DNA from: a virus
Lineage: Duplodnaviria > Heunggongvirae > Uroviricota > Caudoviricetes
IMG/VR virus record: IMGVR_UViG_3300031993_004551
Coordinates: 1-64,000 of that record
Length of the DNA stretch: 64,000 nt
Reading direction: 5' to 3' (one strand)
A model generated the notes under the pieces. It saw only the letters and a list, made by a program, of their open reading frames with translations. It had not been told where the DNA came from and searched no databases. This document shows, one piece after another, positions 1,989-58,750 of this stretch (its first letter is position 1; every line of letters starts with the position of its first letter). The position numbers and the translations under genes are program-made.

Positions 1989-2489
1989 ATGCGTAAACAG
2001 AGCAAACTCGAATTCTACCGTACCGTGACCGCAGTCTCGGTTCCGGTGTACAAGTACAGGTTTCCGAAGTCTGTGCTGAAGTACAAGTCGAAGGAGTATT
2101 ACGGCCAATGGAACTGGTATTGGGACCGTGACCTTCCGAAGAAGTCGGTGGACGACCTCCTGTCCAAGATCGCCGCCACGCTGACACAGACGACCTACGG
2201 TGTAGTGTTAGTCACTCGTCAAGGAAACGAGACCAGTTACAAGATTCCATACAAGGTCGTGTTCAAGGACAACCTTGTCAGGATTTACACGACACGGTAC
2301 CAGTTCATCAAGTCGCAGACCGGCAAGACTATCCTCACGACGCGCAAGGTGTATTTCTCGCCCACGCCGCATTTCGAGTGGGACTTCATTACATTGCGCG
2401 ACTTCAAGCAAGTCTTGTACTACTACGCATCGGACTGTGGATGCAAGAAGGCCAAAAAGCTTAGTGACAAGCTGACTGGTAATGGGTAA
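1989..2489 (+). CDS. hypothetical protein (166 aa)
   Basis: ORF tightly packed after the previous gene (3-nt spacer). No recognisable domain. Confidence 0.5.
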   Translation: MRKQSKLEFYRTVTAVSVPVYKYRFPKSVLKYKSKEYYGQWNWYWDRDLPKKSVDDLLSKIAATLTQTTYGVVLVTRQGNETSYKIPYKVVFKDNLVRIYTTRYQFIKSQTGKTILTTRKVYFSPTPHFEWDFITLRDFKQVLYYYASDCGCKKAKKLSDKLTGNG

Positions 2490-2865: not shown

Positions 2866-3065
2866 GTTTTTTATAACATAGCGACGAGAAAACTCACCCA
2901 TCTTTAGTGGGTGAGATGAAAGCCGCTTGACGATTTTCGGAAAATTTGCTACATATATAAACTGATATACGAAGGCAACTCGCACTTGTCGTCGTGGGAA
3001 AGTTTAAGATGTACTTAGGTACATTGTGTCCTACCGGAAGTGCGAGTTCCGGTAGGATTTTTCGT

Positions 3066-25134: not shown

Positions 25135-26277
25135 TTACTTTAAGTAACAATCGGCAAGCTGCAAAGCCTGCGAAATAGTGTCGTCCATGTCGTTATAGCG
25201 GTACATCCCGAGGCGCCCCGTGGGTACCACATTGAGTGGGAGCATTTCACGGTACTTCCTGTACAGCTCGGAGCTTTCCTTGCTCTTCACCGGGTAGTAT
25301 ACCTCTGTATCACGGGTCATTTCCTGCGGGTACTCGAAGCTCACTATGGACTTGGATTCCATCATGGCAAGCTGGTTCCACGGCTCGAAATGCTTGTGCT
25401 CGATGGTACGGGTGTAGTCCGGGTGGCGCTGGGTATAGTTCACTACGGCAACACCCTGATAGTTGTCGGTATCCTTTTCCTCGGTAACGAACTTCAGGCT
25501 GCGATACGGGAGGTCACCGAGCGAATAGTCAAAGTATTCGTCAAGCCGCCCGGAGTAAAATACCAAATTAGCCCGGTCATTCCATTCGTCCTTGCACTTG
25601 AGGTAGTCCTCTCCGGTGATGACCTGTGCAACCCCGTCGAACATATTGGAAATCCACTGGGTGTACCCGTTCTTCGGGATTCCCTGGTAGATATCGTTAA
25701 AGTAATTATTGTCGAAGCGGAACCTGAGCGGGATGCGGGTAATGATGTTCGAGTCAAGCTCTTTACAAGACTTCCCCCACTGCTTCTCGGTGTATCCCTT
25801 GATGAACAGCTCGTAGATTTCCTCGCCGACCATCGAAAGCGCCCTTTCTTCGAGGTTGGTATAGACCAGCTTCTGGAACTTCTTGGCGGATTCCTCGATG
25901 CGCTTCTTGGCGTCGGCTACGCTGAGCACATCGGGCCAGAGTTTTGTGAAGGTGTTCATGTTGAACGGGAGGTTGAACACTTCCGGATTCGTGTGACCCT
26001 CGCGGGTAACCATAGCAACCGGGCTGTTCACGAACGGCATCATCTCGTCAAAAAGGTTGGCGAAATCCCATACCTTCTTCTCGGATGTATGGAAAATATG
26101 CGCACCGTACTTGTGGACATTGATAGTGCCCATCCGTTCAGTAGCACAGTTTCCGCCCAGTTCTCCGCGGCGTTCAATGACAAGGACTTTCTTGCCCGCG
26201 TTGCCGAACTTATTGGCCAACACCGCGTTAAACAGGCCGGCGCCGACAAAGATAGCATCAAACTTTTGTTCTGACAT
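25135..26277 (-). CDS. glf: UDP-galactopyranose mutase
   Basis: FDAIFVGAGLFNAVLANKFGNAGKKVLVIERRGELGGNCATE...INVHKYGAHIFHT matches the Glf flavin-binding N-terminus nearly motif for motif. Start at ATG 26277 (MSEQKFD). Confidence 0.9.
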   Translation of the reverse strand: MSEQKFDAIFVGAGLFNAVLANKFGNAGKKVLVIERRGELGGNCATERMGTINVHKYGAHIFHTSEKKVWDFANLFDEMMPFVNSPVAMVTREGHTNPEVFNLPFNMNTFTKLWPDVLSVADAKKRIEESAKKFQKLVYTNLEERALSMVGEEIYELFIKGYTEKQWGKSCKELDSNIITRIPLRFRFDNNYFNDIYQGIPKNGYTQWISNMFDGVAQVITGEDYLKCKDEWNDRANLVFYSGRLDEYFDYSLGDLPYRSLKFVTEEKDTDNYQGVAVVNYTQRHPDYTRTIEHKHFEPWNQLAMMESKSIVSFEYPQEMTRDTEVYYPVKSKESSELYRKYREMLPLNVVPTGRLGMYRYNDMDDTISQALQLADCYLK

Positions 26278-28312
26278 TGTAGCTCCTCTTTGGAATGACG
26301 GCATCGTGCGCCTCTGTCTTTACTTCGACTACAGTGGACTCTTCGTTCACCGGGGCCTCTACCGGCTTCGGTTTTTCCTTGACCGGCTCAGTAAAGAACT
26401 TGATGAGCGTATCGCGGTCCATCTTGGTAAGGTCGAGGTCGACTTCACCCTGGTAATCCGCATTGACCGGATGGAAGCCAAATAGCTTGAGAACAGACAC
26501 GAGGCTAATCGTGCGGCCAATCTGCATAATGAGGGAGTCTACCATATTTACGGTATCGCCGTTCTTCATCGGGGCGCGGTTGTTACCGGTAGCCTTACCG
26601 ATGAGCATCACGAAGGAATGGTTAGCGATAGCAAGCGTAGTCCTCTTGGCGGCAATCCTGGAGTCAAGCTGAACGATAATTTCCTCGGGCTTCACCATGC
26701 ACTCCCCGTCTGCCAACGGGCAGGCATCCTTCTTGGCGAAGAACATACGGTAGCGCCCCTGCTTGGCCGAACCGCTGAACTGGTGGAGATTGAAGATGAC
26801 GCCACCATTAGCATAGCCACCGAAATAGATACATTCCGTTGCTTCCGGGTCAGCATTCGTCATGTCCCCGGAGTAGCGCAGATGGAACATCTTCTTCTTC
26901 GGGTCCTCGCCCGGGATATCCGACTTGAAGGTAGTATTCCAGGAAACAGTAGTGCCTTCCAAAGTGGACGCCGAGAGGTCAAAGTCATGCGTACCCCATT
27001 CGTTTCTCCAGTATACCCCAATTACATTGTGCTCGTAGCGGCGAAGCTTGGTACCCATCGGGTAGTCGCCGACGAAGTTTTTTTCGGAGGTCGGGAGCGC
27101 GACCGCGATATTATCGTCAACCTTGATGAACCCAGTCTTCTTCTTTTTGGTGATGAAGTTCGAGATAGACGCGATGATAAGACCCTGCACACTCTGGAGC
27201 CAGAGCATGGATTCCGGGGAACGCTTCGGAGCGTATCCCTTGCGGACAAAGAGTCTACCCGTACGGATAGTGTACACGCTATTCTGGAGAGGTCTCGGGG
27301 CAAGACGGTCGGCGACCGCCTGAAGGAGCCTGAGACGGCGGAACATCGGAGTCTTTTCGAGGGCTTCGGCAACGGCGTCAAGCTTGGCACGGTCACCCGG
27401 AACAAAAATGCAGTCGAGAACGCCCGGTTCATAAGGCTGTTTCAACTTCTTGGCAAGGTGGCTGATGCGGTTGATTGCCATATGGACGGAGTACTTTTCG
27501 ACATCGCCGTAGTCCACCCCGCGGAGCGCCATGAAAAGCTTCTTGAAGCGGAAGTAAACGGTAGCAAGGATTTTATACTCGGTCTCACCAAGGTTCTCGA
27601 AAATCTCGAGCAGTTCTTCATCGTTCTCGGTCGCCCGAATCTCCTGGCATGTCTTCTTGGTGTTCACCAGCATCGCGCTTCCGGTCGCCACATACACGAG
27701 GTAGCGAACGAATTCCACCGGGTCCGTGGGAGTAGTTGCCGTATCCTGATAAATCAGGCAGCGCGCTTCCCTGTTGCGGATTTCTGAAATGTCGCACCCG
27801 CCGTGGGCCTTGATATAACCATAAACGAGAAGCACCGTATCGGCACTGAGGGCAATCCCGGAAGCAAGCATCTTGATGCAGCGCTGCTTGAGTTCATCTG
27901 CAGTGACCGAAGGAATCGTGGTAAGCTTGCTGAAGTCGATTACATAGGTTTCCTGTTCGATTACCTTTTCAGTTTCACGGTTATTCGGCACATAGCCGTT
28001 CCCACAGGCAAAGTCCGTCCCGTAGGTGGACATATAGTGTACCATCTGGTCGAATGCAAGCTGGACTTCGGAGCGGCTTTCGATGTCGTTCCAAGCCTTG
28101 TAGAAGGTGCTGTTCGGGTCGGTAGCTGTATCGAGGAGCCAGTCGCGCACCAGTTCGGTACACGACTCGGGAGCCACCATGAATCCCCTCATGCAGGCGA
28201 GGCGGTTCACCTCGTTAAAGCTTACAAGTTCCCCGCATTCCCCGGGAACTACACAGTGGAACAACTTCAAAAGCTCCACCGGCATCACATATTTTTCAAT
28301 AGCTTCGGACAT
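26258..28312 (-). CDS. hypothetical protein (684 aa)
   Basis: Long ORF. Start at the internal ATG 28312 (MSEAIEK). 20-nt overlap with glf. Confidence 0.55.
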   Translation of the reverse strand: MSEAIEKYVMPVELLKLFHCVVPGECGELVSFNEVNRLACMRGFMVAPESCTELVRDWLLDTATDPNSTFYKAWNDIESRSEVQLAFDQMVHYMSTYGTDFACGNGYVPNNRETEKVIEQETYVIDFSKLTTIPSVTADELKQRCIKMLASGIALSADTVLLVYGYIKAHGGCDISEIRNREARCLIYQDTATTPTDPVEFVRYLVYVATGSAMLVNTKKTCQEIRATENDEELLEIFENLGETEYKILATVYFRFKKLFMALRGVDYGDVEKYSVHMAINRISHLAKKLKQPYEPGVLDCIFVPGDRAKLDAVAEALEKTPMFRRLRLLQAVADRLAPRPLQNSVYTIRTGRLFVRKGYAPKRSPESMLWLQSVQGLIIASISNFITKKKKTGFIKVDDNIAVALPTSEKNFVGDYPMGTKLRRYEHNVIGVYWRNEWGTHDFDLSASTLEGTTVSWNTTFKSDIPGEDPKKKMFHLRYSGDMTNADPEATECIYFGGYANGGVIFNLHQFSGSAKQGRYRMFFAKKDACPLADGECMVKPEEIIVQLDSRIAAKRTTLAIANHSFVMLIGKATGNNRAPMKNGDTVNMVDSLIMQIGRTISLVSVLKLFGFHPVNADYQGEVDLDLTKMDRDTLIKFFTEPVKEKPKPVEAPVNEESTVVEVKTEAHDAVIPKRSYNVRTKV

Positions 28313-28359
28313 CGTAAATCCTCGTAGATACAAAAAAGTACCGGCCACAGCCGATACTT

Positions 28360-28374
28360 TAAATATAGCAAAAA
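28360..28374 (-). promoter_or_regulatory. promoter motif variant (TAAATATAGCAAAAA, minus-oriented) 47 nt upstream of the ATG at 28312
   Basis: Motif match with TTTA in place of TTTG. Confidence 0.4.
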
Positions 28375-28384
28375 TACGGAAACC

Positions 28385-28897
28385 TTACGGCTTCAGCATA
28401 TTCCTGACAGTGGTAATAGCCTTGCCGAGAAGGTTCTGACCGCGCCAGTTAGCCTCGTCGTCAATGCCGTTGGCACCCATAGGCATCAGGATTCCCCAAA
28501 TTCCGTCTACCGGGGAAGCCTCGACGAAAGTCTTCCCGTCGAAGCGAGGGTCGAGCAACTTCTCCAGCAAATCCGGATTCTGCCGGTACTTCTCGAGATT
28601 GACCTGAATCATTATGTCGTACCGTACCTTGGCCCACTTTTCGTTATCAAACGGCTTCACCTGACGGCCAAGCGACTTGGCATCCATCGGGGTAGCCGCC
28701 TTGAGTATGGCGTCCGCCGTCCTGGTGTCGCCGAAGTAGTTCGCCTTTTCCCACATGAACGCCTGTTCCGTGCAGAAGAAAGTTTCCGTCTTCTTGGTTG
28801 TGCCGTCGATATGGCTGCTGTAGGCGAAGCTGCACCGCCTGAAGTTGGATGGCCATTCCTTGTAGAAGAATACATGCGTATCAGTGATATCCAGCAT
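28385..28897 (-). CDS. NADAR-domain protein (YbiA/DUF1768-like)
   Basis: FFYKEWPSNF...FCTEQAFMWEKA...WAKVRYDIM...GIWGIL matches the NADAR fold signature. Start at ATG 28897. Confidence 0.72.
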   Translation of the reverse strand: MLDITDTHVFFYKEWPSNFRRCSFAYSSHIDGTTKKTETFFCTEQAFMWEKANYFGDTRTADAILKAATPMDAKSLGRQVKPFDNEKWAKVRYDIMIQVNLEKYRQNPDLLEKLLDPRFDGKTFVEASPVDGIWGILMPMGANGIDDEANWRGQNLLGKAITTVRNMLKP

Positions 28898-28905
28898 GGC
28901 TACCC

Positions 28906-29529
28906 CTATGCGTCGTTGATGACGCGGCTGAGCCACCGTCCGAAACGGTTATCGTACATGTTAAGTTCCGGGAGATGCTTGGCGATAGCATCGATGCAAT
29001 CGCTGACGCACTCGTCGATACCCTTACGGCCATCCACATAGACCACCGGCGTATTCCCGAGGAACTTCTCGGTCTCCGCATACGCGGTACGCAAATTCTC
29101 GAGACGCCCCGGAGTTTCCTTGAGCTTGGGTTCGCGGTCATAGCAGGTCTCGAGCGGGGTCTCCATGAAGATGTACAGGTCGGGCTGCTTGAAGATGTTG
29201 AAGTCCTGATACAGCTCCTCGCAGAACGAATAGATGCTCGGGGAGAATGCCTTGGCATAGGCAAGCCCGCTCCATAGGTACCTGTCGAGCAGAACCATAT
29301 TCCCGTTGTAGAACTTCTGCTGACGGAGACGGCCTTCGAGGAAAAACACCTCGCGCTTGGCGTCCTTGCCCTTGAACTCGTCCGAGTTGAGCCGGTCAGC
29401 CTCCTCGGTGGAAAACAGGGGTTCCTTGCTCCACTTGAATTCCGGGTAGCGCTTGGCGATAATCTTGGAAATCGTGGTCTTGCCGGAGTTGTCCACGCCT
29501 TCAAACACGATAAGCGGATTATGCTTCAT
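28906..29529 (-). CDS. tmk: thymidylate kinase-like P-loop kinase
   Basis: P-loop IVFEGVDNSGKTT. LDRYLWSGLAYAKA resembles the dTMP kinase DRY..S..AYQ motif. Start at ATG 29529 (MKHNPL), not 29652. Confidence 0.68.
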   Translation of the reverse strand: MKHNPLIVFEGVDNSGKTTISKIIAKRYPEFKWSKEPLFSTEEADRLNSDEFKGKDAKREVFFLEGRLRQQKFYNGNMVLLDRYLWSGLAYAKAFSPSIYSFCEELYQDFNIFKQPDLYIFMETPLETCYDREPKLKETPGRLENLRTAYAETEKFLGNTPVVYVDGRKGIDECVSDCIDAIAKHLPELNMYDNRFGRWLSRVINDA

Positions 29530-30382
29530 TCTTCGGGCCCTCCTTGGGCTTCTGTAAACGGGTCTCCACGAGGGCAGTGGTCGCGTCAGCGTGAACAATA
29601 TTATATCCCGGGTATTTCCCTGACGCATTAAAGTTCTTGGTGTACGGGTCAATCTGCATCTGGATGGCCGGGGCGGTATACTGGATAAGCCCGGTACGGT
29701 GGCAAATCTTGGTGTTTGCGTGGTGGTAATGGCCGCAGCAGACGGTAGTAACCTTAGCGCTCTTCATAAGCACCCGGACGAACTCAAAGTTTACCGGAAG
29801 CGTGAACTGTTCCTGGTTCATGAAGCGGTGGAACGGACGGACAAGCGGCATATGAGTGAACGCAGTCATCGTATGTTCGCCGACATCTGGCATTGCCAAC
29901 AGGCGGAACAGCCCTTCGACCGGATAGTCCTTATGCGCCGTATCGAGCAGGCATAACCTTGTATTGGAACTCTTGCCCTTGGCAAATGCAATAGCCTGTC
30001 CCGGGACATTAAACGAGCCGTCGAACCGAAATTCGAAAAATGCATTCTTATTGTAAAGGTATACGAACTTTTTACGGAACGCCGTAAATGCTTCCTCAAG
30101 AGCAGCACGGTTATCGTGGTTACCCGGGGTTACCAAGATTGCCGGCTGATACTCTTCAGGCAAGTCCCCCCCGAACGCCCGTTGCAATCCCTCGAGAAGA
30201 TTAGTGTAATCTTCGACCGTAGCGTCATCCACGAGGTCGCCGGTAAGGACGATAAGGTTGTAATGGCTGTACTGCCTTCCGGCATCAGCCAGTACGGCGT
30301 CCAGGTTTCCCTGGACATCGAACATACCCTTCTGGTCCCCCTTGAGGTGTATATCCGAAAGTTGAAGTATTAATGATTCCAT
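29519..30382 (-). CDS. calcineurin-like metallophosphoesterase (CpdA/Icc-type cyclic nucleotide phosphodiesterase-like)
   Basis: Motif series SDIHL, GDLVDD, GNHDN, GHYHH. Confidence 0.7.
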   Translation of the reverse strand: MESLILQLSDIHLKGDQKGMFDVQGNLDAVLADAGRQYSHYNLIVLTGDLVDDATVEDYTNLLEGLQRAFGGDLPEEYQPAILVTPGNHDNRAALEEAFTAFRKKFVYLYNKNAFFEFRFDGSFNVPGQAIAFAKGKSSNTRLCLLDTAHKDYPVEGLFRLLAMPDVGEHTMTAFTHMPLVRPFHRFMNQEQFTLPVNFEFVRVLMKSAKVTTVCCGHYHHANTKICHRTGLIQYTAPAIQMQIDPYTKNFNASGKYPGYNIVHADATTALVETRLQKPKEGPKNEA

Positions 30383-30401
30383 AGGTTTCTAGGTTCCTTA
30401 T

Positions 30402-30869
30402 TTATTTGTAAACAATCTTGATTACATGCGGTGTTTCCAAGAACACTCCCTTGATTATCTCGGAGACGACCTCCCATTCCAACCGGTCAAGCCCGCAGCC
30501 GATTTTCGGCATCACGATGACCTTAGGCTCGGCAAAGTTCATCGCAAGGTACTGCCGAAACGCAACCAGGGACTTAGTGAGCGTAAGATAGGTCGGCTTA
30601 TCCCACGAATGCTCCTTCGTTATCAAGTTAATAAAAGTCCCTTTATCTGTAACGACCGGCATCGCCATTCCCGGGAACAAGTCGATAGTATTGCCTTCCG
30701 GGTTATTGCTGCACCTGTACCGGCACTTCTTTTCCGCATTGTACATATCGCGGATGATTACCGGGGCTATTCCGCTGCCCCATGCGAGGTCGGCCGCGAT
30801 GCAATGGGCAATGATTACTCCGGTCGTATCGACGGTCGTGATATCACGCTTTTCTTCAAAATATCTCAT
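30402..30869 (-). CDS. macro-domain protein (ADP-ribose binding/processing)
   Basis: VIIAHCIAADLAWGSGIAPVI resembles the macro-domain phosphate-binding loop (VVNAAN...G.GIA). Size 155 aa. Confidence 0.55.
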   Translation of the reverse strand: MRYFEEKRDITTVDTTGVIIAHCIAADLAWGSGIAPVIIRDMYNAEKKCRYRCSNNPEGNTIDLFPGMAMPVVTDKGTFINLITKEHSWDKPTYLTLTKSLVAFRQYLAMNFAEPKVIVMPKIGCGLDRLEWEVVSEIIKGVFLETPHVIKIVYK

Positions 30870-31713
30870 CGGCTTTAATTTCCTTCGTTATCAGGCGCGA
30901 ATAAAGGTTCGCGTATGCTTTAAACTCCTCGGCATCGATGAACGGCCCAAGATTCACTACCGGGTTGTTATGCTCGTTCACCACCTCGAATACGCACTGC
31001 GGATGTTCTTTAGTAGCGCGGTAGTAGGTATTCTTCTTGAGCAGGAGAATCTTCCTCGTCGTATATGGCGTATTGGCATAGTTGATTGCCATGCCATAAT
31101 TGCCCTCAAATGCTATCCCGTAACCGTTGCCAAGCTTAAGTCTAGGGAACAACTTGCGGTCGGACGCATCCTTGCCGCATATTTTCTTAACCCATACAAG
31201 AAAACGGTAATCCTCGTCGTGGTAGGCATTCCATATCCGGGAAACCTCCTGCACACTCTCCACGCCCAGTTCGGAGTCTTCCGTTATCATATAACGGACG
31301 CCTTCCGGAATATCAACAATGCGAAGCGTATTGTTGTCGTTCAGCTTGTCGAGCATCTTGTAGTCGCCACCGAGAGCATCCACATAGGAAACAAGGGTGT
31401 CGCGCAGTTCGCTACCGGTAGTGTCAAAAGAAAGGTTCACCGATGCGGTATCGGGCACATCTCCATGTAGAGGATTACCGGAATCGTCATAGCAGGACTT
31501 TGTAGCGTTAAAGTGGACAAGCCAAGCCTTGATGAGCTTGCTCGAACCCCCGAAAACAGCCAAGGCTTTCCCGTTGGAGTCCGCAGGTAAAAAATAAGGG
31601 TCGGGGGATACGGTATCCCCTACCCTTTCGGCCAAATACATTGCCGCCCCGAGAGATATCTGGGGTACGCCGATACTTGTCGAGACGAGCACCTTTGGCA
31701 TTATACGCCCCAC
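30856..31713 (-). CDS. hypothetical protein (285 aa) inside the NAD island
   Basis: ORF overlapping both neighbours (14 and 13 nt). No recognisable motif. Confidence 0.5.
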   Translation of the reverse strand: MGRIMPKVLVSTSIGVPQISLGAAMYLAERVGDTVSPDPYFLPADSNGKALAVFGGSSKLIKAWLVHFNATKSCYDDSGNPLHGDVPDTASVNLSFDTTGSELRDTLVSYVDALGGDYKMLDKLNDNNTLRIVDIPEGVRYMITEDSELGVESVQEVSRIWNAYHDEDYRFLVWVKKICGKDASDRKLFPRLKLGNGYGIAFEGNYGMAINYANTPYTTRKILLLKKNTYYRATKEHPQCVFEVVNEHNNPVVNLGPFIDAEEFKAYANLYSRLITKEIKADEIF

Positions 31714-32486
31714 TTCGGAATACGGACGATATCGCGCTTGAACTGCGATGCCTTTACACGGGCCTGGATTTTACCCAAAACGCCAATATTAAGTGTTTCC
31801 GGATTATTGACATAAGTCCGGATGTCATCGTAAGTAAAGCCGAGGTTGTCCTCGTCCGTCTTACCACTGAGGCCGTCGGACGGAGCCTTGTAGACAAGAT
31901 GTTCCGGGAGGCCAAGCGCCATTCCCAGCTTGCAGACATCCTGCTTGAACAGGGTACCAATCGGAGCCAAATCGCCAGCAAGGTCGCCCCACAAGGTACA
32001 GTATCCGACGAGAGCTTCTGAGAAGTTTCCCGTGCAGAGAACGCGGCCTTCACCGAGCGCCTGTGCAACCATGTACAGCTTTTCCATACGGATACGCGGG
32101 GCGAGATTGATTTCTGCCTGACGGTCATACATGTGCTTCGTACCGAGACCCTTGATGAGTTCAATCTGCTTCAGCCCAATCTGGTAATCGTCGTGGATGT
32201 TGATTGTAAGCGTACGGGTAATCCCGGCAGCTACTGCACAATTGTGAGCATCTTCAAGGTCTGGCTGGACTCCGTTCGGGAGGAACACGCCGATTACCTT
32301 GTCCGCGCCTAAAGTCCTCGTGGCAAGCTTGCCGACAACCAAGGAGTCGGTTCCGCCGGACATACCGAGAACGAGAAATTCGCCGTGATTTTCTTGCATC
32401 GTGAGCTTAATCCACTGTCCGATGCTATCGGCCATTTCGATGAACTTGGCGGTTTCTTCTTCAGTCATTTTATCTGGCGTGAGCAT
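31701..32486 (-). CDS. nadE: NH3-dependent NAD+ synthetase
   Basis: PP-loop LVLGMSGGTDSLV. Downstream LCTGNFSEALVGYCTLWGD is characteristic of NadE. Start at ATG 32486 (TAATG coupling to pncA). Alternative ATG at 32467. Confidence 0.85.
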   Translation of the reverse strand: MLTPDKMTEEETAKFIEMADSIGQWIKLTMQENHGEFLVLGMSGGTDSLVVGKLATRTLGADKVIGVFLPNGVQPDLEDAHNCAVAAGITRTLTINIHDDYQIGLKQIELIKGLGTKHMYDRQAEINLAPRIRMEKLYMVAQALGEGRVLCTGNFSEALVGYCTLWGDLAGDLAPIGTLFKQDVCKLGMALGLPEHLVYKAPSDGLSGKTDEDNLGFTYDDIRTYVNNPETLNIGVLGKIQARVKASQFKRDIVRIPKWGV

Positions 32487-33106
32487 TATGCGGCTCCTTT
32501 GTAAATAGTGGGGACGACATCGCAGAGCATGGAACGGGCAAGCGTGAATGCCGCTTCCTGAGCCTGCTTGTTCTGTTCGGCATTGATGAAGCAAGCCGCA
32601 GTAGCACCGTCGACCACCTCAATTTTTGCATCCGGGAACCAAGCGCGGTCGATTGCCCAGTTGGAGGCATCACAGATGTCCGTGCAGGTACCGGTATAGC
32701 GAATGACGATGTTCTTGCCACGGGTAAGTGCGGCAACGGCATCCTGGTCCGTAGAGTCGATATCGAACATAACCTTCGGCCAGTTGATGAAACCAAAGTT
32801 ATGCTTGTCGATGATGATGGCATTCTTCTTCTTGAGAGCAGCCATGATTCTCGGCTCGATTTCCCATTCCGGTGTGCCGTAGACACAGTGAATCGGGAGA
32901 CGCTTGCCTTCAATAGACTGGTAATAGGAATCGTCGTCGAAGTGCGTATCGCGGGTGGCGATAATGATGCCGTCCCACGCCTCGATTTCGGCGATTACGG
33001 CGTCAATGATGGCTTCTGCAGCCGGATTCTTGAGGACTCCGGTTATGAATCCTATCTGCATGTCGATTACTTTGAGAATCTTGAGAGCTTTATCTATCAG
33101 GTTCAT
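32486..33106 (-). CDS. pncA: nicotinamidase (isochorismatase/cysteine hydrolase family)
   Basis: VIDMQIGF (D), conserved K region, GTCTDICD catalytic Cys. Confidence 0.82.
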   Translation of the reverse strand: MNLIDKALKILKVIDMQIGFITGVLKNPAAEAIIDAVIAEIEAWDGIIIATRDTHFDDDSYYQSIEGKRLPIHCVYGTPEWEIEPRIMAALKKKNAIIIDKHNFGFINWPKVMFDIDSTDQDAVAALTRGKNIVIRYTGTCTDICDASNWAIDRAWFPDAKIEVVDGATAACFINAEQNKQAQEAAFTLARSMLCDVVPTIYKGAA

Positions 33107-33121
33107 TTTTGCTTCTGTTGG

Positions 33122-34777
33122 TTATAAGCGTATTCCGCCGAAAAGGCCACACTGGTCTACTCGGTCAAGCGGTTGTTTCTTGATTCCATCCGGGAACTTC
33201 CTAATGTAGTCGTCGAGGATGCGGTTGTGGTGGAAAGCCAGCTGCATCTTCTGCGCATCGGAGATAGCAACCCACTGGACTTCCTTGGCGTCATCGGCAG
33301 GTTCAGCCCCGATGATATGCGGAATTTCAACGGCGAGACCCACATCGTATGCGCCGTGGTCTGGCTTGATGCCTGCGCGGGGGTCCGTCGGATAGTAGAC
33401 GCCGACACACTCGACTTCGGACTTGTCGATTGTGGTGATACTCGTCTCTTCCTTGACCTCGCGTAGTGCGGCTTCCTCGATATCCTCACCCGGGTCGGCG
33501 AATCCGCCCGGGAAGCACCAGTAGCCCATATACGGGCCATACTTCCTGCGGACAAGAAGGACGAATCCCTTGGAAACAATCAGAGTAGTCGCCGTCACGG
33601 AGAATGACGGGTAGTTATCCGGGTTTGCACGGGCAATCGCTTCCTTCTCGGCGGCATCGTATTCTTCCTGGGTAACCTGCCCGTACAACTTATTGTCAAC
33701 GATGTACTCGAGGGCTTCGCCCGGAACATCGGTACCGGCATACATCGGGTTGTGCAGGAGATTGAACCGTGCCTGCGTAGAGGATGTCGCCGGTATCCTG
33801 GCATTGACAATCCTGAGACGCTCCCCGACATCATCGTTGGGACGGTTAATCCTCCGGTCATTTAACGGAATGTCATTGCGCCCGAACACCATGAAGGAGA
33901 ACTGGGTAAGCAATTCCTCGCTATGCTCCCACCGGTGGAAATCGTGGAGCATACGCCATTCATCGGCGCCCATGCAGATGGTGACCTTCGACGGGTCAAG
34001 TTTGAGGGTTTCGGTGAGGAACTGGTATGTGCGCACCGGCTGTTCGACAATCTGAACAACATTGTCATCCTCGGCCCAACGGTCGGAATAACGACAAATT
34101 TCCTGAAATACTGTACGGAGCATGCGCTTTCGTGTGCCTGCCCTTACAGTATATTTCTTTTCGTCATTATTACTTACCATAAGGATGAGTGCAACCGGAA
34201 GAGGTCTATCGATATCAACCGGCTTAAACCTTTCGTTGGCAATCGCAATCATCTGGTTCAACAGGGCACGGATAATTTCCTTGTGACCGGTTGTCACCGG
34301 GTCGAACGCTCCTCCGTAAACAAGGATGTGCTTCGCATTGCGAACATTGTCATACAGAGTGACCTTATCCTTGACCTCAGCCGGCTTATCATGTAACGAC
34401 ATAACTGCAAACGACTTCTTTGCAAAGGACTTGGCAACTTCAACAGACTTGTTAAACACCGTGTAAAACAGGTCGCCCGGTGTTAAATCGATATCACACG
34501 ACTGGAGCACCTTAGAAGTCCTCTGGCGGCCCAAATCGTTAAGTTGTCCGGCAGCTTCTGCAATTCCATAGGCTTCCTTGCGGTCGACAAAGCGGAAATT
34601 GTTGCTATCTTCGCCGGCAATAAAGCCAGTACAGCTAGGTACATCGCTTGCAACCCATTCGTAGTCATCCTTGAGAGACATCAGGTTCATAGATGCATCG
34701 CCGTGGTCCTTCGCGACTGCAAACGGCTGACTGAAATTAGGGGCAAATCCCTTGAATGCACAGATAATCTTTTCCAT
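33122..34777 (-). CDS. nadM: nicotinamide/nicotinate mononucleotide adenylyltransferase fused to Nudix hydrolase, with extra N-terminal domain
   Basis: YGGAFDPVTTGH is the (H/T)xGH nucleotidyltransferase motif. C-terminal Nudix box GGFADPGEDIEEAALREVKEETSI. About 160-aa unassigned N-terminal region. Confidence 0.82.
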   Translation of the reverse strand: MEKIICAFKGFAPNFSQPFAVAKDHGDASMNLMSLKDDYEWVASDVPSCTGFIAGEDSNNFRFVDRKEAYGIAEAAGQLNDLGRQRTSKVLQSCDIDLTPGDLFYTVFNKSVEVAKSFAKKSFAVMSLHDKPAEVKDKVTLYDNVRNAKHILVYGGAFDPVTTGHKEIIRALLNQMIAIANERFKPVDIDRPLPVALILMVSNNDEKKYTVRAGTRKRMLRTVFQEICRYSDRWAEDDNVVQIVEQPVRTYQFLTETLKLDPSKVTICMGADEWRMLHDFHRWEHSEELLTQFSFMVFGRNDIPLNDRRINRPNDDVGERLRIVNARIPATSSTQARFNLLHNPMYAGTDVPGEALEYIVDNKLYGQVTQEEYDAAEKEAIARANPDNYPSFSVTATTLIVSKGFVLLVRRKYGPYMGYWCFPGGFADPGEDIEEAALREVKEETSITTIDKSEVECVGVYYPTDPRAGIKPDHGAYDVGLAVEIPHIIGAEPADDAKEVQWVAISDAQKMQLAFHHNRILDDYIRKFPDGIKKQPLDRVDQCGLFGGIRL

Positions 34778-34781
34778 AGCT

Positions 34782-34813
34782 CAAATATAGCAAAAATCCC
34801 CGTTTCCGGGGAT
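34782..34813 (-). promoter_or_regulatory. overlapping terminator hairpin (34796-34813) and promoter motif (34782-34796). ATG of nadM lies 4 nt downstream
   Basis: ATCCCCG-TTT-CGGGGAT hairpin. Its 3' T-run is the TTTTT of TTTTTGCTATATTTG. Confidence 0.55.
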
Positions 34814-34823
34814 TCTTTTAAGT

Positions 34824-36074
34824 CTAATCGGGTAGTCCGGTGTACTTCTTTCCGGTATCCACGCGCTCAAACTTCGGCATCGTGAGCTTTACCGCCATGA
34901 AGTAATCCTCGCCCATAGGTGTCGCGTTCGGGATAGCCCTTACCGCAATCAGTGATGAAGACTCATCGCGGTATATCTGAATATACAGCTCGCCGTTCTC
35001 GCCGCGGTCACCATTGTAGTACAGGAGACGCTGACCATCCGCTGTGCAAAGCTCCTTGCGGAAATCCTTGTCCAGCGTCGCGTGTAGAACATGCGTCTCG
35101 GGGTTGTACGAACGCTCACAGCCGGCGCCGGAATACCCCTCCACCAACGCAAGCAGCATATAGGCTTCGTCAATGTGGCACTGCGATGCAACCGTAGGGT
35201 CATGCTGGCGCAACTGGTAGTGAATCTCGGTAAGCCTTGCGAGAAGCGCGGGAACCTTCGGGGAACGGTCCGCGACAGCCTGCATCGCGCCGTTCAGCGT
35301 ATCCCAGAACACATCAAGGATGTCCAGGGTCTTCGAGCGGAATTCCCGGTATACCCTGTCGATATCGGCCGTGCACTCGTTGTACTTTTTGATGACCGTC
35401 TTGGCGGCACGGTCAATGTAGTCGAAGTCACTTTCGTCAGGATGCTTCGCCTCGTCGATTACTGTGTAGTCATCGAGAAGGCATTCCACAATCCTTTCAG
35501 GACCCTTTACATTGCACCGGAATCCAAACTTACGCGGAACCAAGATATCATTGTCGACAATATTAATCAGGGAATTCGCCCCGAGCATGGAAATCTTGCG
35601 GATACCCTCGATATTTTCGTTTACAAGGATGTTCCCGTCAAGCATTCCCTGCATCGTCTTCCTACCGGGATTAAACCATTCTGCGGACGAAACCTGTGAC
35701 AACAGGATATGGAACCGGTTCATAGCAACCTTTGCTTCTTCTGCCGTCTCATCGGTAAAGGTATGGTCCTTGAAGTCACGGTAGGACGGCTTCGGCTTAT
35801 AGGTCTTTTCATTATCGAGAGTCATCCCGAAGTTCTCGATAATGTAGTTCCTTGCGTCGGCTATAGCCTCCTCGGGCCGTTTCATATCACGGTTAATCAC
35901 CATAGCCCTGCCATGGGGCTGCCGCTTGTTGAACTTGATGCCGAACCCGTAACGGGTAACATTCAGCGTACCGACGACCTTGCAGGCATTTTCACCATCC
36001 GTATCGACAATATCAGCGGAAAAAAGAAGGAATGGCTTTGGAGCCACCCCTTCCTCGAATATCACAGTACGCAT
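34824..36074 (-). CDS. hypothetical protein (416 aa), translationally coupled to pncB
   Basis: Start ATG overlaps the pncB stop (TAATG). No recognisable motif. Confidence 0.6.
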   Translation of the reverse strand: MRTVIFEEGVAPKPFLLFSADIVDTDGENACKVVGTLNVTRYGFGIKFNKRQPHGRAMVINRDMKRPEEAIADARNYIIENFGMTLDNEKTYKPKPSYRDFKDHTFTDETAEEAKVAMNRFHILLSQVSSAEWFNPGRKTMQGMLDGNILVNENIEGIRKISMLGANSLINIVDNDILVPRKFGFRCNVKGPERIVECLLDDYTVIDEAKHPDESDFDYIDRAAKTVIKKYNECTADIDRVYREFRSKTLDILDVFWDTLNGAMQAVADRSPKVPALLARLTEIHYQLRQHDPTVASQCHIDEAYMLLALVEGYSGAGCERSYNPETHVLHATLDKDFRKELCTADGQRLLYYNGDRGENGELYIQIYRDESSSLIAVRAIPNATPMGEDYFMAVKLTMPKFERVDTGKKYTGLPD

Positions 36075-37492
36075 TAGGCAGCCACCTCGAACTCGTCGAT
36101 GATATTACCCTTCGGGTCAAACTTAACCAGTTTTCCACCGTAGATAATCTCATCGAGCTGCTTACGGCTGAAGCGGTCAATCGGAGCCCAGTTGTATGCG
36201 AGCTTTGTATCGATGATTGTCTTCTGGTCGGTGCACATGCACTTGCCTTCACTGTCGGAAAGCTTGACGACATGCTGGCCGTTGCATTCGGTGACCTTCA
36301 TCACGATGGGCAACGGCTGCTTTGCACCCGGCTTGCAGCAGATTGTGGCAGAGAGGAATGTACCGATACCGAATGCGACATTGATATCCTTGTAGAACTC
36401 CCAGGCAATCTTGAGTGCCTTGTCCGCATCCAAGCTGTCGCTCCAGCAGGCCGTCTTGGACTTCGGGTCGACCTTTCCACGCCTGTAGTGGTCGATGAGC
36501 ATGTGCCCCCACTTGAACGGGTCGCCGCTGTCGTGGCGGCAGCCGTCGTAGAGCTTCATGAAGGACACGTCGAAGTCGCGGAGGAACGCAGCGAAACCGA
36601 AGTTGTCGCTCAAGGCGATACCGAGGGAACCGCGGAACTCGTCGTCCCAGTTGGAAAGGACCCACTTCTGGGCGTCCTTCAGGCGAATGCCCTTTGCCTG
36701 TGCGATTGCGTAAAGCTCGTGGGCAAATGTGCCAATCGCTTTACAGTCGCACTTGATTGCGAGCCAGACGTTGGATGTTCCCACGAATGCCGGGCAGAAC
36801 TTGAGGAGGTACATGACCATGTACTCGTTCCACTCGTTGCTGATGCCACGGCGGACACCGAAGTCGGAAACCGTGAAGCGGCATCCTTCGCGCCAAGCCT
36901 TGTTCCACTTGACGACGACTTCCTCGAGGTTCTTCTTGGCGTATTCCCAGTCGAACTCCTCGCCCTCGAAGTAGAGCTGCTGCACAATCTGCAGCACATA
37001 TATTTCGAACCAGAACACATCGAGCTGCGGACCTTCGGCAACGATGCGGACGCCGCCGTTCACGGACGGGTCGGCGAATACGCGGATGTACTTGCGGTCA
37101 AGCTGGAGCTTCTCGAGGTAACGGATGAAGTCATCGCTGAGCCACGGGAGCTTCTTGCGGATGCCCTCGATTTCTTCCTTGGTGTAGCGCAAGGTGCAGA
37201 GCCAGTCGAGTTCGGCACAGATGTCCTCAATGAGATAAGTGAGGTCTACGCCCTTCGTACGGAGGCAGAATTCCCATTTAGCCTTATCATTATAACAGCG
37301 ATGCTTGTAGAACTGACCCATTGAGTATTTATAAGTATCTGTTTGGGTCAGATGCTCAATGATATGCTTATCCGGGTTGCGCCGGGTAAACTTCTTGATA
37401 GCCTTCGTGATAATCTTCTTGCGCTTCGGACGGGTCTTGAACGGGTCAATTCCCTTCTTGAGCAAAGCCTTGTCACTTAGTTTCCGTGTCAT
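36074..37492 (-). CDS. pncB: nicotinate phosphoribosyltransferase
   Basis: TDTYKYSMGQ, WFVGTSN, GTFAHELY, LGIALSDNFGFAAFLRDF, GCRHDSGDP and KVTECNGQHVVKLSDSEGK all match E. coli PncB blocks. Extra 40-aa basic N-terminus. Confidence 0.9.
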   Translation of the reverse strand: MTRKLSDKALLKKGIDPFKTRPKRKKIITKAIKKFTRRNPDKHIIEHLTQTDTYKYSMGQFYKHRCYNDKAKWEFCLRTKGVDLTYLIEDICAELDWLCTLRYTKEEIEGIRKKLPWLSDDFIRYLEKLQLDRKYIRVFADPSVNGGVRIVAEGPQLDVFWFEIYVLQIVQQLYFEGEEFDWEYAKKNLEEVVVKWNKAWREGCRFTVSDFGVRRGISNEWNEYMVMYLLKFCPAFVGTSNVWLAIKCDCKAIGTFAHELYAIAQAKGIRLKDAQKWVLSNWDDEFRGSLGIALSDNFGFAAFLRDFDVSFMKLYDGCRHDSGDPFKWGHMLIDHYRRGKVDPKSKTACWSDSLDADKALKIAWEFYKDINVAFGIGTFLSATICCKPGAKQPLPIVMKVTECNGQHVVKLSDSEGKCMCTDQKTIIDTKLAYNWAPIDRFSRKQLDEIIYGGKLVKFDPKGNIIDEFEVAA

Positions 37493-38699
37493 TTTCGTTA
37501 TCCCTGTTGATGTTTTCCTGTTTAAATTCCTGCATTTTCAGATTCTCCAAGGTTACCTTGCGCATACCCTTGTAGATACTCTCGCGGATGGCCATCCAGC
37601 CTTCCTCGGATATCGAACCATTCAATGCCCACCGTCCCGCCGAAGCGGCCGCGCCGATGACCGTCGGGTAATCGTCGAACTCCTTGCGAGCCAGCTCGTA
37701 AACCGCCCGGCCGGCGTCAACCTTGTCGCTAACACATCTGTCGGCGAATCCCTGTATACGAGTATACAAGCTGTCGAAGATTTCGCCGAAGCTTTTCAGG
37801 AACGCCTTAATGTCCACCAGTTCCTCCGGGACGCTCTTGACGGTTTCGTCCGGGAACTTCCCGTCCTTCCACGAGAATATATCCAAGAGGTTCCTCGGGG
37901 TGAGGCTGTGGAACAGCTTCTGCGCGGCAAGGAACTCCGGACCCTTGAGCTTCACCTTGAACCCGTCGCCGTAGGTAAGGACGAGCCCTTCCTTGCTTGC
38001 CGGCAGCTTCTTGACATACTCGCAGGTAGCCTCGAAGGACGGAAGCTCGATGCGCTCGGCGAGAGGCACTCCCATCGCCTTGGCAATCATCTTCAGGTTC
38101 TCGTAGGAATATTCCCTGCCGGTAGCATTCAGGATTACCCCGGTAAGCACACAGGCCTCGTAGTCGTACCTGATAGGATGGACATCCTCCTTGCAGAGAA
38201 TCTCGAACATATAGGTACATCCGGAAGCCATGTAGTTCTGGATTCCCCTCTCGCGGAGCCACTTTTCGGCCCATTCGCCCTGGAAAGCCGTGAATGCACC
38301 CGAAGTGGTTACCAAAAGATTCCCGTCGACGATACCCGCGATGCACAGCGAACCGTCAAGCTTGTCGGTCGCGCTGAACCATCCTTTCGGGTCGAACTTC
38401 GGCTCGTACCCGGGAATCTTGCTGAGCAGGTCGAACAGCGAAGTATGCTGCATCGTCTCGCTATAGAGTTCCCCGAAGTTGAAGAACTTGGACCACGGGC
38501 GCAGTACGCACTCGCCGTCGCTGACCCTAAATACATGCCCCCTCGAGTTGAGGGTGATTTCGTCCCATCGCTGGTCGTATATCGTGTACTCGGTATACTT
38601 GAACTTGACATATTTCCTGTCAGGCGAATATGTCATGATTAAGTCCGGGCCGTCGGCACGGGCGATATACTCGGAAAGCGGGGGTAATTTTTCTACCAT
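37473..38699 (-). CDS. RNA ligase, T4 Rnl1 family
   Basis: LNSRGHVFRVSDGECVLRPWSKFFNFGE resembles T4 Rnl1 [31 protein letters not shown]. Motif I TDKLDGSL resembles KEDGSL. Confidence 0.85.
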   Translation of the reverse strand: MVEKLPPLSEYIARADGPDLIMTYSPDRKYVKFKYTEYTIYDQRWDEITLNSRGHVFRVSDGECVLRPWSKFFNFGELYSETMQHTSLFDLLSKIPGYEPKFDPKGWFSATDKLDGSLCIAGIVDGNLLVTTSGAFTAFQGEWAEKWLRERGIQNYMASGCTYMFEILCKEDVHPIRYDYEACVLTGVILNATGREYSYENLKMIAKAMGVPLAERIELPSFEATCEYVKKLPASKEGLVLTYGDGFKVKLKGPEFLAAQKLFHSLTPRNLLDIFSWKDGKFPDETVKSVPEELVDIKAFLKSFGEIFDSLYTRIQGFADRCVSDKVDAGRAVYELARKEFDDYPTVIGAAASAGRWALNGSISEEGWMAIRESIYKGMRKVTLENLKMQEFKQENINRDNENDTETK

Positions 38700-52325: not shown

Positions 52326-53669
52326 CTAGATTTTGTAATCCGGGGACTTCGCCTTGAAGGAGACCGAGAAGTCGTCCCTGCGGCGGAGCACAAGCCCTTC
52401 GCGGAGGTGGCTCAGGTTGTTCCCGTACACAGTCTTCGCCGTGGAAATCACGAGGAGATACTGGACATCTGCCGGGAGGCGGAAGTGGTCGTCGATGACC
52501 GGGACATACTGGAAGCCGTGCTTTTCGCAGAATGCAACGGTATCCTCGTAGTTATAGCGCTTTACAAACTTGCGGGTATCCGGGTCAATCGGGAACACAT
52601 CGTAGATACGGATGTCGTGTCCGCCGAGCTGGTAGATATTCTTCTGGATACCTTCACCGACATGCTCACCACGGATGAACCATTCGCCCGGAACTGCAAG
52701 GAGCTTCTTATCAAACCCGTAATCGACAACCGTCTTCCAGAACTGCATCTTCTTGCACTTACTGAACGGAAGGTTACGGGTGCGGCTCATGACATAGAGC
52801 TTCTTGGTCTTTTCGCCGGTAAAGCGTTCCTTCAACCTTGCAAAGAGGGAAGTGGAGTACCGGGTAGCGATGGAAATCGACTGGCCTTCTAGCTTTTCGG
52901 TAGCCACGAAATCCTCGTCCTTGTTCTTGTCATAGATGCTAGAGTAGATTTTCTGCGCGTTGGTCTCGTCGGACTTCAGAGGAGCCCAGTCTGGCCACCC
53001 AACAGGGTCATTGTTTACACACTGGCGCAGCCAACGGTACCACCTGAAACGCATGAGCTTCTTATGGATAATCCGGAACAGGAAGAACTTCGGCTCGTCA
53101 CCGCCAAGCCCTGCTTCCTCCTCGTCCTCCACCGGCTCGGTAATGCCGAGGAAATCGGTGAAGTCCGCGCCTTCCTTAATCTTGTTTTCCGGGATACCGA
53201 CTACCTTTGGGTCGAACAGGATACCCTCGGAAATCACGCCGAACTTCTTCATGAAGTTAAGGGACTTGATTTCAAAGTGGCGCTCGCGGAGGAACTCGAA
53301 GTACGGGTACTTGGACTTCTGCTGGGTAAGCTCCATAGCTTCCTTGAGCTTTTCGAGGGGGATATAATCAGCCGGTTCTTCCGGGACCGGCTCACCCTTG
53401 TCCAGCGCCTTCTGTACGGCGTTATTGTACTTCTTGGCAATGGAAGCCTTCTTGGCAAGAACATTGTAAGCATCCCGGTCGGCAATTTCGAGGCCGTCGG
53501 GCAAGATGGAACCGATTTCGACATAGAGTGCAAGGTCGCCTTCCTTGAACTCGCCCTTCTTGGCGATGAGGTTCCAGTCAAGAACGGTCACCCGTTCGAT
53601 ACGGTCGGCACCCTCGATAGGATGCACGGATTTTACTCTTTCGATATGAGCAAGCGATTTTCCAAACAT
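52326..53669 (-). CDS. RNA/DNA ligase-family nucleotidyltransferase with N-terminal OB (tRNA-binding-like) domain, DraRnl-like
   Basis: N-terminus VHPIEGADRIERVTVLDWNLIAKKGEFKEGDLALYVEIGSILPDG matches the Myf/EMAP-type OB fold. C-terminal motifs TEKLEGQS (I), WFIRGEHVGEG (III), DIRIYDVF (IV), REGLVLRRRD (V), KAKSPDY (VI). Confidence 0.65.
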   Translation of the reverse strand: MFGKSLAHIERVKSVHPIEGADRIERVTVLDWNLIAKKGEFKEGDLALYVEIGSILPDGLEIADRDAYNVLAKKASIAKKYNNAVQKALDKGEPVPEEPADYIPLEKLKEAMELTQQKSKYPYFEFLRERHFEIKSLNFMKKFGVISEGILFDPKVVGIPENKIKEGADFTDFLGITEPVEDEEEAGLGGDEPKFFLFRIIHKKLMRFRWYRWLRQCVNNDPVGWPDWAPLKSDETNAQKIYSSIYDKNKDEDFVATEKLEGQSISIATRYSTSLFARLKERFTGEKTKKLYVMSRTRNLPFSKCKKMQFWKTVVDYGFDKKLLAVPGEWFIRGEHVGEGIQKNIYQLGGHDIRIYDVFPIDPDTRKFVKRYNYEDTVAFCEKHGFQYVPVIDDHFRLPADVQYLLVISTAKTVYGNNLSHLREGLVLRRRDDFSVSFKAKSPDYKI

Positions 53670-58299: not shown

Positions 58300-58750
58300 T
58301 GTAAATGGACGCATTTTATACAAAAAATATCAAAAGTATAGCCAAAATAGCTAAATAGATGCTAGATTTGAATATAGCAAGCACCAATAATCAATATTTG
58401 TGTGTTGCATTTAGCAACATATATGTATTCATAAGGAATGCTCGCATCAACGGCCCATAGATGTATAATCTAAAAGTGAATCTTGAACTCTTTGCTCTGG
58501 ATAACACTTTTCGTTGATTAGACTCAGTGAAGCATAATAATATGCTGAACTATGTTAAAAAGACCATGACACCCTGAGATATTTGGCCAAGTCTCTCGCC
58601 CTGTCGAACGATATTAAACAACCCAGATGGGTAAGGGTAGTGTATCGTTCATAAAAATCTTTTTAACCTTGTCGATGGTCACCCACAGGGATTAATCCCT
58701 GCATTACCTATTAAATTAGGTATAAAAGGATAGCGAAATGGTTTATGTGT
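58300..58750 (+). ncRNA. putative IscB omega-RNA (upstream of and overlapping the iscB 5' end)
   Basis: IscB omega-RNAs are established to lie directly 5' of iscB. Hairpins GTTGCATTTAGCAAC and CAGGGATTAATCCCTG are seen. Exact boundaries unknown. Confidence 0.4.

Follow-up and report, generated by a model that had tools for sequence, protein, structure and literature searches.

A predicted two-domain protein encoded in an NAD/ADP-ribose gene island of uncultured huge phages: a lineage-specific accessory role is more likely than a new NAD enzyme function

The first 64,000 nucleotides (nt) of the IMG/VR virus record IMGVR_UViG_3300031993_004551 (Caudoviricetes), referred to here as the window, contain a minus-strand open reading frame (ORF) of no recognizable family between nadE, the gene for an NH3-dependent nicotinamide adenine dinucleotide (NAD) synthetase, and a gene for a macrodomain protein. 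This gene, referred to here as the target, lies in an island of NAD and ADP-ribose (ADPR) genes, and an earlier reading of the sequence (the original prediction) proposed it as a candidate for a new NAD- or ADPR-metabolizing activity. The present analysis favors a lineage-specific accessory protein over a new NAD enzyme, because almost all other phage NAD gene clusters lack its family.

RESULTS AND DISCUSSION

Location of the target gene and its genomic context

The ORF list contains an ORF of 285 amino acids (aa) at 30856-31713, as originally predicted; it lies on the minus strand and has a GTG start codon. However, the start codon is more likely the ATG at 31701, four codons 3' of the GTG, from which 281 aa are encoded up to a TGA stop codon. 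This ATG has one base in common with the TAA stop codon of nadE (TAATG; junction sequence GTATAATGCC), and the context of the junction reads …GGGCGTATAATGCC…. The orthologues in all close relatives were called independently at 279 to 285 aa and have the N-terminus MPKVLV. Because of the overlap with the nadE stop codon and the calls in the relatives, the gene is likely best placed as listed in Table 1. The predicted overlap of 14 nt with the macrodomain gene (30856-30869) was found, with the macrodomain ATG lying 14 nt ahead of the target TGA, whereas the predicted overlap with nadE (31701-31713) holds solely for the GTG start and is reduced to 1 nt by the ATG, which still indicates tight coupling. 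The dN/dS values of the target were 0.146 and 0.222 against orthologues with protein identities of 85% and 67%, respectively, which indicates a genuine coding gene under purifying selection.

Both neighbors named in the original prediction, nadE and a macrodomain gene, were borne out by the database matches given in Table 1, and the macrodomain protein had no match in Pfam. The longest nadE ORF (31701-32594, minus strand), which encodes 297 aa from a TTG, overstates the gene, and the ATG at 32486 is favored since both the calls in relatives and the stop/start junction with the PncA gene agree with a protein of 261 aa. The target is part of a co-directional block of minus-strand genes with tight or overlapping junctions, in the order Rnl1 RNA ligase, NAPRT-family enzyme, a 416-aa protein of unknown function, NMNAT-Nudix fusion, PncA-like isochorismatase, NadE, target, macrodomain, metallophosphoesterase with weak similarity to Rv0805/Icc, thymidylate kinase (TMK), NADAR, a 696-aa protein of unknown function, and UDP-galactopyranose mutase (GLF). 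Co-expression of the target with the NAD/ADPR island is supported by this arrangement; as the target overlaps with genes for NAD salvage and ADPR removal, its protein would be made at the same time as theirs. The originally predicted co-translation within the block is consistent with the co-directional genes and overlapping junctions, which argue for translational coupling. Two hairpins are possible boundaries of the transcription unit of the target (Table 1), but the promoter and terminator scans of the window were at chance level overall, so these bracketing hairpins are suggestive only.

The island (28385-37492, minus strand) carries a full set of genes for deamidated (Preiss-Handler-type) NAD salvage, comprising the NAPRT-family enzyme, NMNAT-Nudix, PncA, and NadE, and it further encodes the TARG1-type macrodomain, phosphoesterase, and NADAR proteins. 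The 416-aa protein (34824-36074, minus strand), encoded between the NAPRT-family and NMNAT-Nudix genes, is kept at 26% to 27% identity in a sub-lineage without NAPRT, PncA, and NadE, and it had no match in Pfam, PHROG, NCBIfam, PADLOC, or PDB sequences. The 696-aa protein (26258-28348, minus strand) shares 43% to 45% identity with its counterparts in distant members of the clade, where its gene always lies between those of NADAR and GLF; its sole match was a subthreshold Ral-like one.

The phage itself is distant from cultured phages. Essentially no near match of the window DNA was found among them, and the nearest cultured-phage terminases to the large terminase subunit (TerL) of the window, from T4-like cyanophages, are just 24% identical. 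The relatives were found on contigs of 170 to 486 kb, and the clade consists of uncultured huge phages.

Table 1. Features of the target locus and predicted regions of the target protein (AF2, AlphaFold2 model, with E and H marking strand and helix residues)
Feature	Position in the window	Strand	Basis
Target gene (GTG at 31713 as alternative start, adding 4 residues)	30856..31701	-	ORF list; sequence; orthologue calls; dN/dS 0.15-0.22
Residues 1-27: N-terminal strand, Gly loop, and helix (MPKVLVSTSIGVPQISLGAAMYLAER), first half of the phrog_16527-like module	31621..31701	-	AF2 E3-7, E14-16, H17-26; hhalign; conservation 0.58
Residues 28-95: variable insertion (~65 aa), poorly conserved	31417..31620	-	Alignment A2; conservation 0.26; gap in the hhalign alignment
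Residues 96-160: conserved core of the N-domain	31222..31416	-	Alignments A2 and A3; region profile finds 89-116-aa proteins; hhalign 98.35%
Residues 161-281: family-specific C-terminal alpha/beta domain	30859..31221	-	AF2 model, pLDDT 87; alignment A2
NadE, NH3-dependent NAD synthetase, 261 aa (upstream neighbor)	31701..32486	-	PF02540, E 1e-47; 261-aa calls in relatives; junction
TARG1/OARD1-type macrodomain protein, 155 aa (downstream neighbor)	30402..30869	-	PDB 4j5q, E 6e-15; phrog_335, 1.6e-20; DarG models, ~1e-6
Hairpin, 11-bp stem, 5' of NMNAT-Nudix; possible 5' boundary of the transcription unit	34792..34817	-	Terminator-like scan
Hairpin, 11-bp stem and T-run, just past NADAR; possible 3' boundary of the transcription unit	28335..28360	-	Terminator-like scan

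Target family and domain architecture

A word-indexed search of 5.8 billion proteins yielded only five close relatives of the target, and an exhaustive profile search of 1.84 billion cluster representatives yielded 32 matches, 20 of them with E values below 1e-10 and nearly all 214 to 310 aa long. The resulting alignment (A2) contains 25 family sequences that share 23% to 35% identity with the target, apart from one close orthologue at 68%. Residues N121, P132, D162, and Y226 are invariant among the 25 sequences, and R100, D118, L126, R127, G146, E148, and L221 are nearly so. The matches also included two very large proteins, P0024 (2,295 aa) and P0028 (2,888 aa), which align with residues ~64 to 105 of the target in 12 and 20 short stretches, respectively. 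They were rejected as relatives because these are probably spurious matches to the variable insertion; P0024 is a surface protein made of DUF7507/DUF11 Ig repeats and an OmpA domain, and P0028 has no Pfam domain. The 541-aa member P0027 hinted at a fusion, which gave no lead since its extra C-terminal half contains no Pfam domain.

Conservation is highest in the two parts of the N-terminal module (0.57 to 0.58), intermediate in the C-domain (0.32 to 0.44), and lowest in the insertion (0.26), which is largely missing from short forms of 244 to 250 aa. The conserved core at residues 96 to 160 consists of a helix, an LD.LN motif, an LRIV(D/E)(I/V)P(E/D)G strand, a hairpin, and E.V.E..R.W, and its conserved residues are R100, D118, N121, R127, P132, G146, and E148. 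The C-domain comprises a helix (162-175), a five-strand meander (188-240), and a second helix (257-271), with a YY..T..HP(K) motif in addition to the invariant D162 and Y226. Members of the family are acidic, with isoelectric points (pI) of 4.6 to 5.9, and have no hydrophobic segments.

The statement in the original prediction that the target has no recognizable motif holds for Pfam, PHROGs, NCBIfam, PADLOC, and the sequences of the PDB. No match was obtained for the target in Pfam, PHROGs (E ≤ 0.01), NCBIfam, or PADLOC-DB (E ≤ 1), and the 25 family members had no meaningful Pfam or PHROG family, although one of them matched phrog_9951 at an E value of 0.005. Neither the target nor any of the 25 members matched a Pfam or NCBIfam model of the NAD and ADPR enzyme superfamilies considered, which were macro, NADAR, Nudix, NAPRT/NAMPT, NMNAT, NAD synthase, isochorismatase, PRPS-like Adps, and metallophosphoesterase. 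PDB sequence and profile searches with alignments A1 and A2 returned only noise (E > 0.1), and pattern scans of IMG/VR with alignments A1 and A6 and a scan of genome contigs with A5 gave no match. As tblastn searches of cultured phages with the target, P0011, and P0018 were also negative, the family is known from metagenomes only.

An AlphaFold2 model built from the 25-sequence alignment had a mean predicted local distance difference test score (pLDDT) of 87.3 and a predicted template modeling score (pTM) of 0.64, while that built from six near-identical sequences was unusable (pLDDT of 37). Foldseek comparison of the former with the PDB gave a best probability of 0.11, with no significant neighbor among the solved folds, including those of the NAD and ADPR enzyme superfamilies. 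In BFVD, the sole matches with high probability (0.90 to 1.00) were to four small uncharacterized phage proteins of 104 to 144 aa, and their E values were weak (3e-3 to 8e-2).

Remote homology to phrog_16527

A profile of residues 96 to 160 alone retrieved proteins of 89 to 116 aa from the 5.8 billion sequences, with E values down to 1e-5. All 13 of these small proteins hit phrog_16527 (up to 8e-32), which is annotated as "unknown function," and they have no Pfam family and no solved relative that could be found. They have motifs in common with the target family, namely, MK.VIN.C.GGFGLS at the N terminus and LRIVEVPDD..W.I.EYDG.E.V.E.HRTW at the C terminus. In a family-versus-family comparison with hhalign, the two families aligned with a probability of 98.35% and an E value of 1.1e-14 over 99 columns across residues 1 to 160 of the target. 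The N-terminal strand-loop-helix was matched as well (MK.VIN.C.GGFGLS..A), although it lay outside the query with which the small proteins were found. Judged by these alignments, residues 1 to 160 of the target (1-27 plus 96-160, split by the insertion) are remotely homologous to the phrog_16527 module, and the target is predicted to be a two-domain variant of phrog_16527 and not a member of it, because the PHROG hidden Markov model (HMM) does not hit the target and both size and architecture differ.

Both families start with a strand, a Gly-rich loop, and a helix, which are followed by a helix, LRIVEVPD(D/G), a beta-hairpin, and E.V.E.(H)R.W, and the phrog_16527 proteins are likewise acidic and free of hydrophobic segments. 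However, these proteins are single domains of ~90 to 116 aa, largely without the insertion, whereas the target has 281 aa with an insertion of ~65 aa and a C-domain of ~120 aa. The invariants D118, N121, D162, and Y226 belong to the target family alone, and the window protein has G-V in place of the GG of the loop. Whereas the target family is found in metagenomes only, the small proteins occur widely, in phages that infect many different hosts. The matched genes in cultured phages of Vibrio, Synechococcus, Edwardsiella, Citrobacter, Acinetobacter, and Paenibacillus, including Synechococcus phage S-CRM01 and Acinetobacter phage Mithridates, are annotated only as "hypothetical protein," and in Clostridium phage c-st the matching stretch carries no annotation. 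The stand-alone proteins are encoded in generic accessory (moron) positions without NAD genes, such as a Mu-like head module and the early region of a temperate phage.

Distribution of the family and its linkage to NAD genes

Seven groups (a to g) can be distinguished among the loci retrieved with the target, and groups a to e represent one phage clade. Group a, to which the window belongs, has the order PncA, NadE, target, macrodomain, and phosphoesterase, and group b has PncA, NadE, target, and phosphoesterase and no macrodomain. In group c, NadE is followed by one to three small ORFs and the target, with TMK and NADAR further on. Group d contains Rnl1, the 416-like protein, NMNAT-Nudix, and the target, with phosphoesterase, NADAR, and GLF further on; its locus is without NAPRT, PncA, and NadE, which indicates that the gene is not dependent on an adjoining NadE. 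Group e has NADAR, GLF, PnuC (on the opposite strand), a conserved 170-aa protein of unknown function, the target, ~3 kb of small ORFs, NAPRT, NMNAT-Nudix, PncA, and phosphoesterase. The 170-aa protein is always encoded directly upstream of the family member in this sub-lineage (L015, 2167-2679; L016, 7435-7947; also L018 and L032 to L036), its copies being 43% to 49% identical to that of L015, and the gene for the PnuC-like NMN transporter lies divergently nearby.

Group f comprises short contigs in which a gene for an NAD-dependent DNA ligase lies directly upstream of the target. On one of them (L013, 3.3 kb), the family member (1634-2488, plus strand; 25% identity to the target) starts 10 nt downstream of the ligase gene (1-1623, plus strand), the product of which has adenylation, OB, and BRCT domains; this may be the sole NAD-related context outside the main clade. 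Group g consists of two unrelated phages with G+C contents of 32% and 42% (50% in the window) and no NAD gene in the recovered flanks, which cover 8 kb upstream and, downstream, 2.8 kb in L005 and 0.9 kb in L012. No partner gene common to all of the family-carrying loci was found. The target family is the sole family common to the island loci and L005 or L013/14, and L012 has two further weak matches to L017 and L050.

Across groups a to e, the identities to the proteins of the window were 56% to 66% for PncA, 57% to 70% for NADAR, 51% to 53% for NadE, 51% to 58% for GLF, and 50% to 56% for NAPRT, except for an NAPRT identity of 30% in L017/L026. The target, at just 25% to 35%, is among the fastest-evolving proteins of the island. 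On all family-carrying contigs of the clade that are long enough to judge, the gene lies inside the island or within a few kilobases of it, despite repeated rearrangement. As all of the NAD-linked loci belong to one phage clade, the linkage can be inherited synteny; that the gene has persisted despite the rearrangements speaks to some degree for a functional tie, but common descent explains most of this persistence.

The linkage was also examined from an anchor chosen independently of the target, in a census of 80 IMG/VR loci centered on PncA (±10 kb) that was searched with the target-family HMM. NadE is encoded on the same strand in 65 of these loci. The family was detected in a single locus (L050), a group e relative from the same clade, and in none of the 65 loci that also have NadE. 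Even L049, which belongs to the same clade, has the census PncA closest to that of the window (62%), and also carries phosphoesterase and GLF, contains no family member within 10 kb. The family thus did not co-occur with PncA and NadE across independent phages in the census, and the great majority of phage PncA/NadE modules can do without the gene.

Possible functions of the target

We tentatively favor an accessory protein specific to the clade, which would bind a partner instead of performing a step of NAD metabolism, plausibly in host takeover or counter-defense. The target would be a soluble, acidic, two-domain accessory protein of one uncultured huge-phage clade, with a divergent, insertion-split phrog_16527 module as domain 1 (residues 1-160) and a family-only alpha/beta domain 2 (161-281). 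It would be co-transcribed and translationally coupled with the NAD-salvage and ADPR-removal genes but may act on its own, as a noncatalytic binding factor and not as an NAD-pathway enzyme. The putative contacts are the polar residues R100, D118, N121, R127, E148, D162, and Y226 of the module and the domain junction, and the bound partner may be a macromolecule or a nucleotide encountered during host takeover or counter-defense, the latter role being plausible because of the genes among which the target sits. We prefer this interpretation because the family is missing from 79 of the 80 PncA-anchored viral loci, because members in unrelated phages have no NAD genes nearby, and because the best-conserved part of the protein is a phrog_16527-like module that also occurs as a stand-alone protein in accessory positions without NAD genes. 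The rapid evolution of the target (25% to 35% identity, versus 50% to 70% for PncA, NADAR, NAPRT, NadE, and GLF) and its acidic character point in the same direction. Several observations weigh against it. The invariant N121, D162, and Y226 and the near-invariant R100, D118, R127, and E148 would also be expected of a small active site or of a pocket that binds nucleotides. In addition, the gene stays in or beside the NAD island through rearrangements, directly after NadE, NMNAT-Nudix, or, in L013, the NAD-dependent DNA ligase, which hints at a functional link with NAD-making or NAD-using enzymes.

These same polar residues, the retention in the island of five rearranged sub-lineages at 25% to 35% identity, the ligase adjoining the L013 member, and the translational coupling to NadE and the macrodomain gene would suit a new component of the island that handles NAD, ADPR, or an NAD-derived signal, whether as an enzyme, a small-molecule binder, or a sponge working with NadE, NMNAT-Nudix, the macrodomain, or the phosphoesterase; the fold without known relatives could then be a new catalytic scaffold. 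We regard such a component as doubtful, since every NAD-linked locus comes from one phage clade, the group d locus is without NAPRT, PncA, and NadE, and the family is found in 1 of the 80 PncA loci and in none of the 65 with NadE, being absent even from the neighborhood of PncA, phosphoesterase, and GLF in L049. Members without NAD neighbors also exist in unrelated phages, the core module is common to the phrog_16527 proteins, which have no NAD context, and the target is unrelated to the PRPS-like, Adps-type protein of other phage modules (hhalign probability of 0.2%). With the clade-restricted linkage, the census, the group d arrangement, the unrelated carriers, and the module shared with small proteins, and with no sequence or fold similarity found to any nucleotide-handling superfamily, the originally proposed new NAD- or ADPR-metabolizing activity is not supported. 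A more specific form, in which a previously unseen fold binds or converts an NAD-derived molecule (ADPR, nicotinic acid adenine dinucleotide [NaAD], or a cyclic-ADPR-type immune signal) at a putative site at the junction of the module and the C-domain (N121, D162, Y226, R100, and R127), is improbable.

About as doubtful as an NAD-handling component is a function outside both NAD chemistry and defense, for example, in replication, nucleic acid handling, or some other general process of the phage, with the position in the island reflecting inherited gene order. The restriction of the synteny to one clade, the lack of a constant partner gene, and the varied settings of family members and their small relatives (a small-ORF early region, a Mu-like head gene, YopX, AAA_33 and SMC-like genes, and DNA ligase) are consistent with such a function, but the island has been rearranged repeatedly in the clade and the gene has nevertheless remained within it or a few kilobases away, and the start/stop overlaps with NAD and ADPR genes imply stoichiometric co-expression. 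A role as a virion structural protein is effectively excluded. Homology to an unrelated structural protein was the observation that the original prediction named as refuting it, and the only such trace is a match to the spike protein P1 of PM2 (PF22188, E 0.007, 16.6 bits, residues 87-164; PDB 2vvd, E 0.54). This match lies below the Pfam cutoff of 27 bits, is given by 1 of the 25 family members, falls on the phrog_16527-like core, and has no support from the fold searches; moreover, the gene is part of a metabolic operon and not of a structural module.

NAD-depleting bacterial defenses and phage pathways that rebuild NAD are an active field of research, and a conserved gene of unknown function embedded in an NAD island is a candidate new player. 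The expectation that the target is a missing NAD enzyme is lowered by the finding that most phage NAD modules manage without it, and its core appears to be a generic phage module, listed in a catalogue without ever having been characterized. For experimenters, the two-domain architecture, a confident model without known relatives, and a short list of invariant residues provide concrete starting points, and the link could help to establish what the phrog_16527 proteins do in phages of Vibrio, Synechococcus, Acinetobacter, Clostridium, and other hosts. If the fold does bind or convert an NAD-derived molecule, it would represent a new class of component in NAD-based phage counter-defense and would suggest a nucleotide-binding function for the phrog_16527 module. 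The target gene may be of less immediate interest than the finding that PncA-NadE pairs are widespread in phages.

Comparison with known NAD and counter-defense systems

Tad1, Tad2, and Acb2 are small phage counter-defense binders and nucleotide sponges. By analogy only, the target resembles them in being small to medium-sized, acidic, fast evolving, restricted to phages, and encoded beside genes that plausibly counter NAD-based immunity. However, no PDB structure, and hence none of these proteins, matched the target model significantly. The macrodomain (TARG1/DarG type), NADAR, and Nudix proteins are encoded in the same operon-like block but have no sequence or fold similarity to the target.

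Three phage NAD+ reconstitution pathways have been described, with NARP1 consisting of Adps and Namat, NARP2 consisting of NadV and NMNAT/Nudix (bioRxiv 10.1101/2024.02.11.579819), and NARP3 consisting of PnuC and NadR (PMC13464706). The setting of the target is similar in that NAD-rebuilding enzymes are encoded around it, including an NAPRT/NAMPT-family enzyme and NMNAT-Nudix (NARP2-like) in addition to PncA and NadE. However, the target has no homologue among the components of these pathways, and assignment of its system to NARP3 was rejected on the basis of the PnuC-NadR composition of the latter. The NARP1/NARP2 preprint (bioRxiv 10.1101/2024.02.11.579819) does not mention NadE, PncA, nicotinamidase, or Preiss, and a literature search yielded no description of a phage NAD route via PncA and NadE.

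An unrelated viral contig of the census (L060, 10010-13666, plus strand) encodes PncA, a 278-aa PRPS-like protein, a 489-aa NAMPT-like protein, and NadE, with a P-type cation ATPase downstream. The PRPS-like protein is Adps-like and matches PDB 4twb at 4e-14, and the module looks like a NARP1-type gene pair flanked by genes for nicotinamidase and NAD synthetase. The possibility that the target is a diverged version of the 278-aa protein of such PncA-X-NAMPT-NadE modules was rejected, since that protein is PRPS-like and hhalign gave a probability of 0.2%.

Other elements in the window

No tRNA genes were found in the window by ARAGORN. A HEARO (omega) RNA was identified at 58446-58686 on the plus strand (Rfam RF02033, 97.7 bits, E 8e-19), and the ORF directly downstream (58738-60021, plus strand) encodes RRXRR and HNH domains. 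By their domain and RNA family matches, the two are assigned to an IscB-type OMEGA element in the phage genome, which sits in a patch of low G+C content (35.6%, compared with ~50% for the window). Two ORFs are TnpB/Cas12f-like, one (2994-4337, plus strand) with HTH_OrfB_IS605, OrfB_IS605, and Cas12f1-like TNB domains and the other (62142-63941, minus strand) with the TNB domain only, which indicates that mobile RNA-guided nuclease genes are scattered in the phage. The window also contains two distinct RNA ligase genes within 64 kb, a T4 Rnl1-like gene at the head of the NAD island (37473-38699, minus strand) and a gene of the RNA_ligase plus PHA02142 OB-fold type (52326-53669, minus strand).

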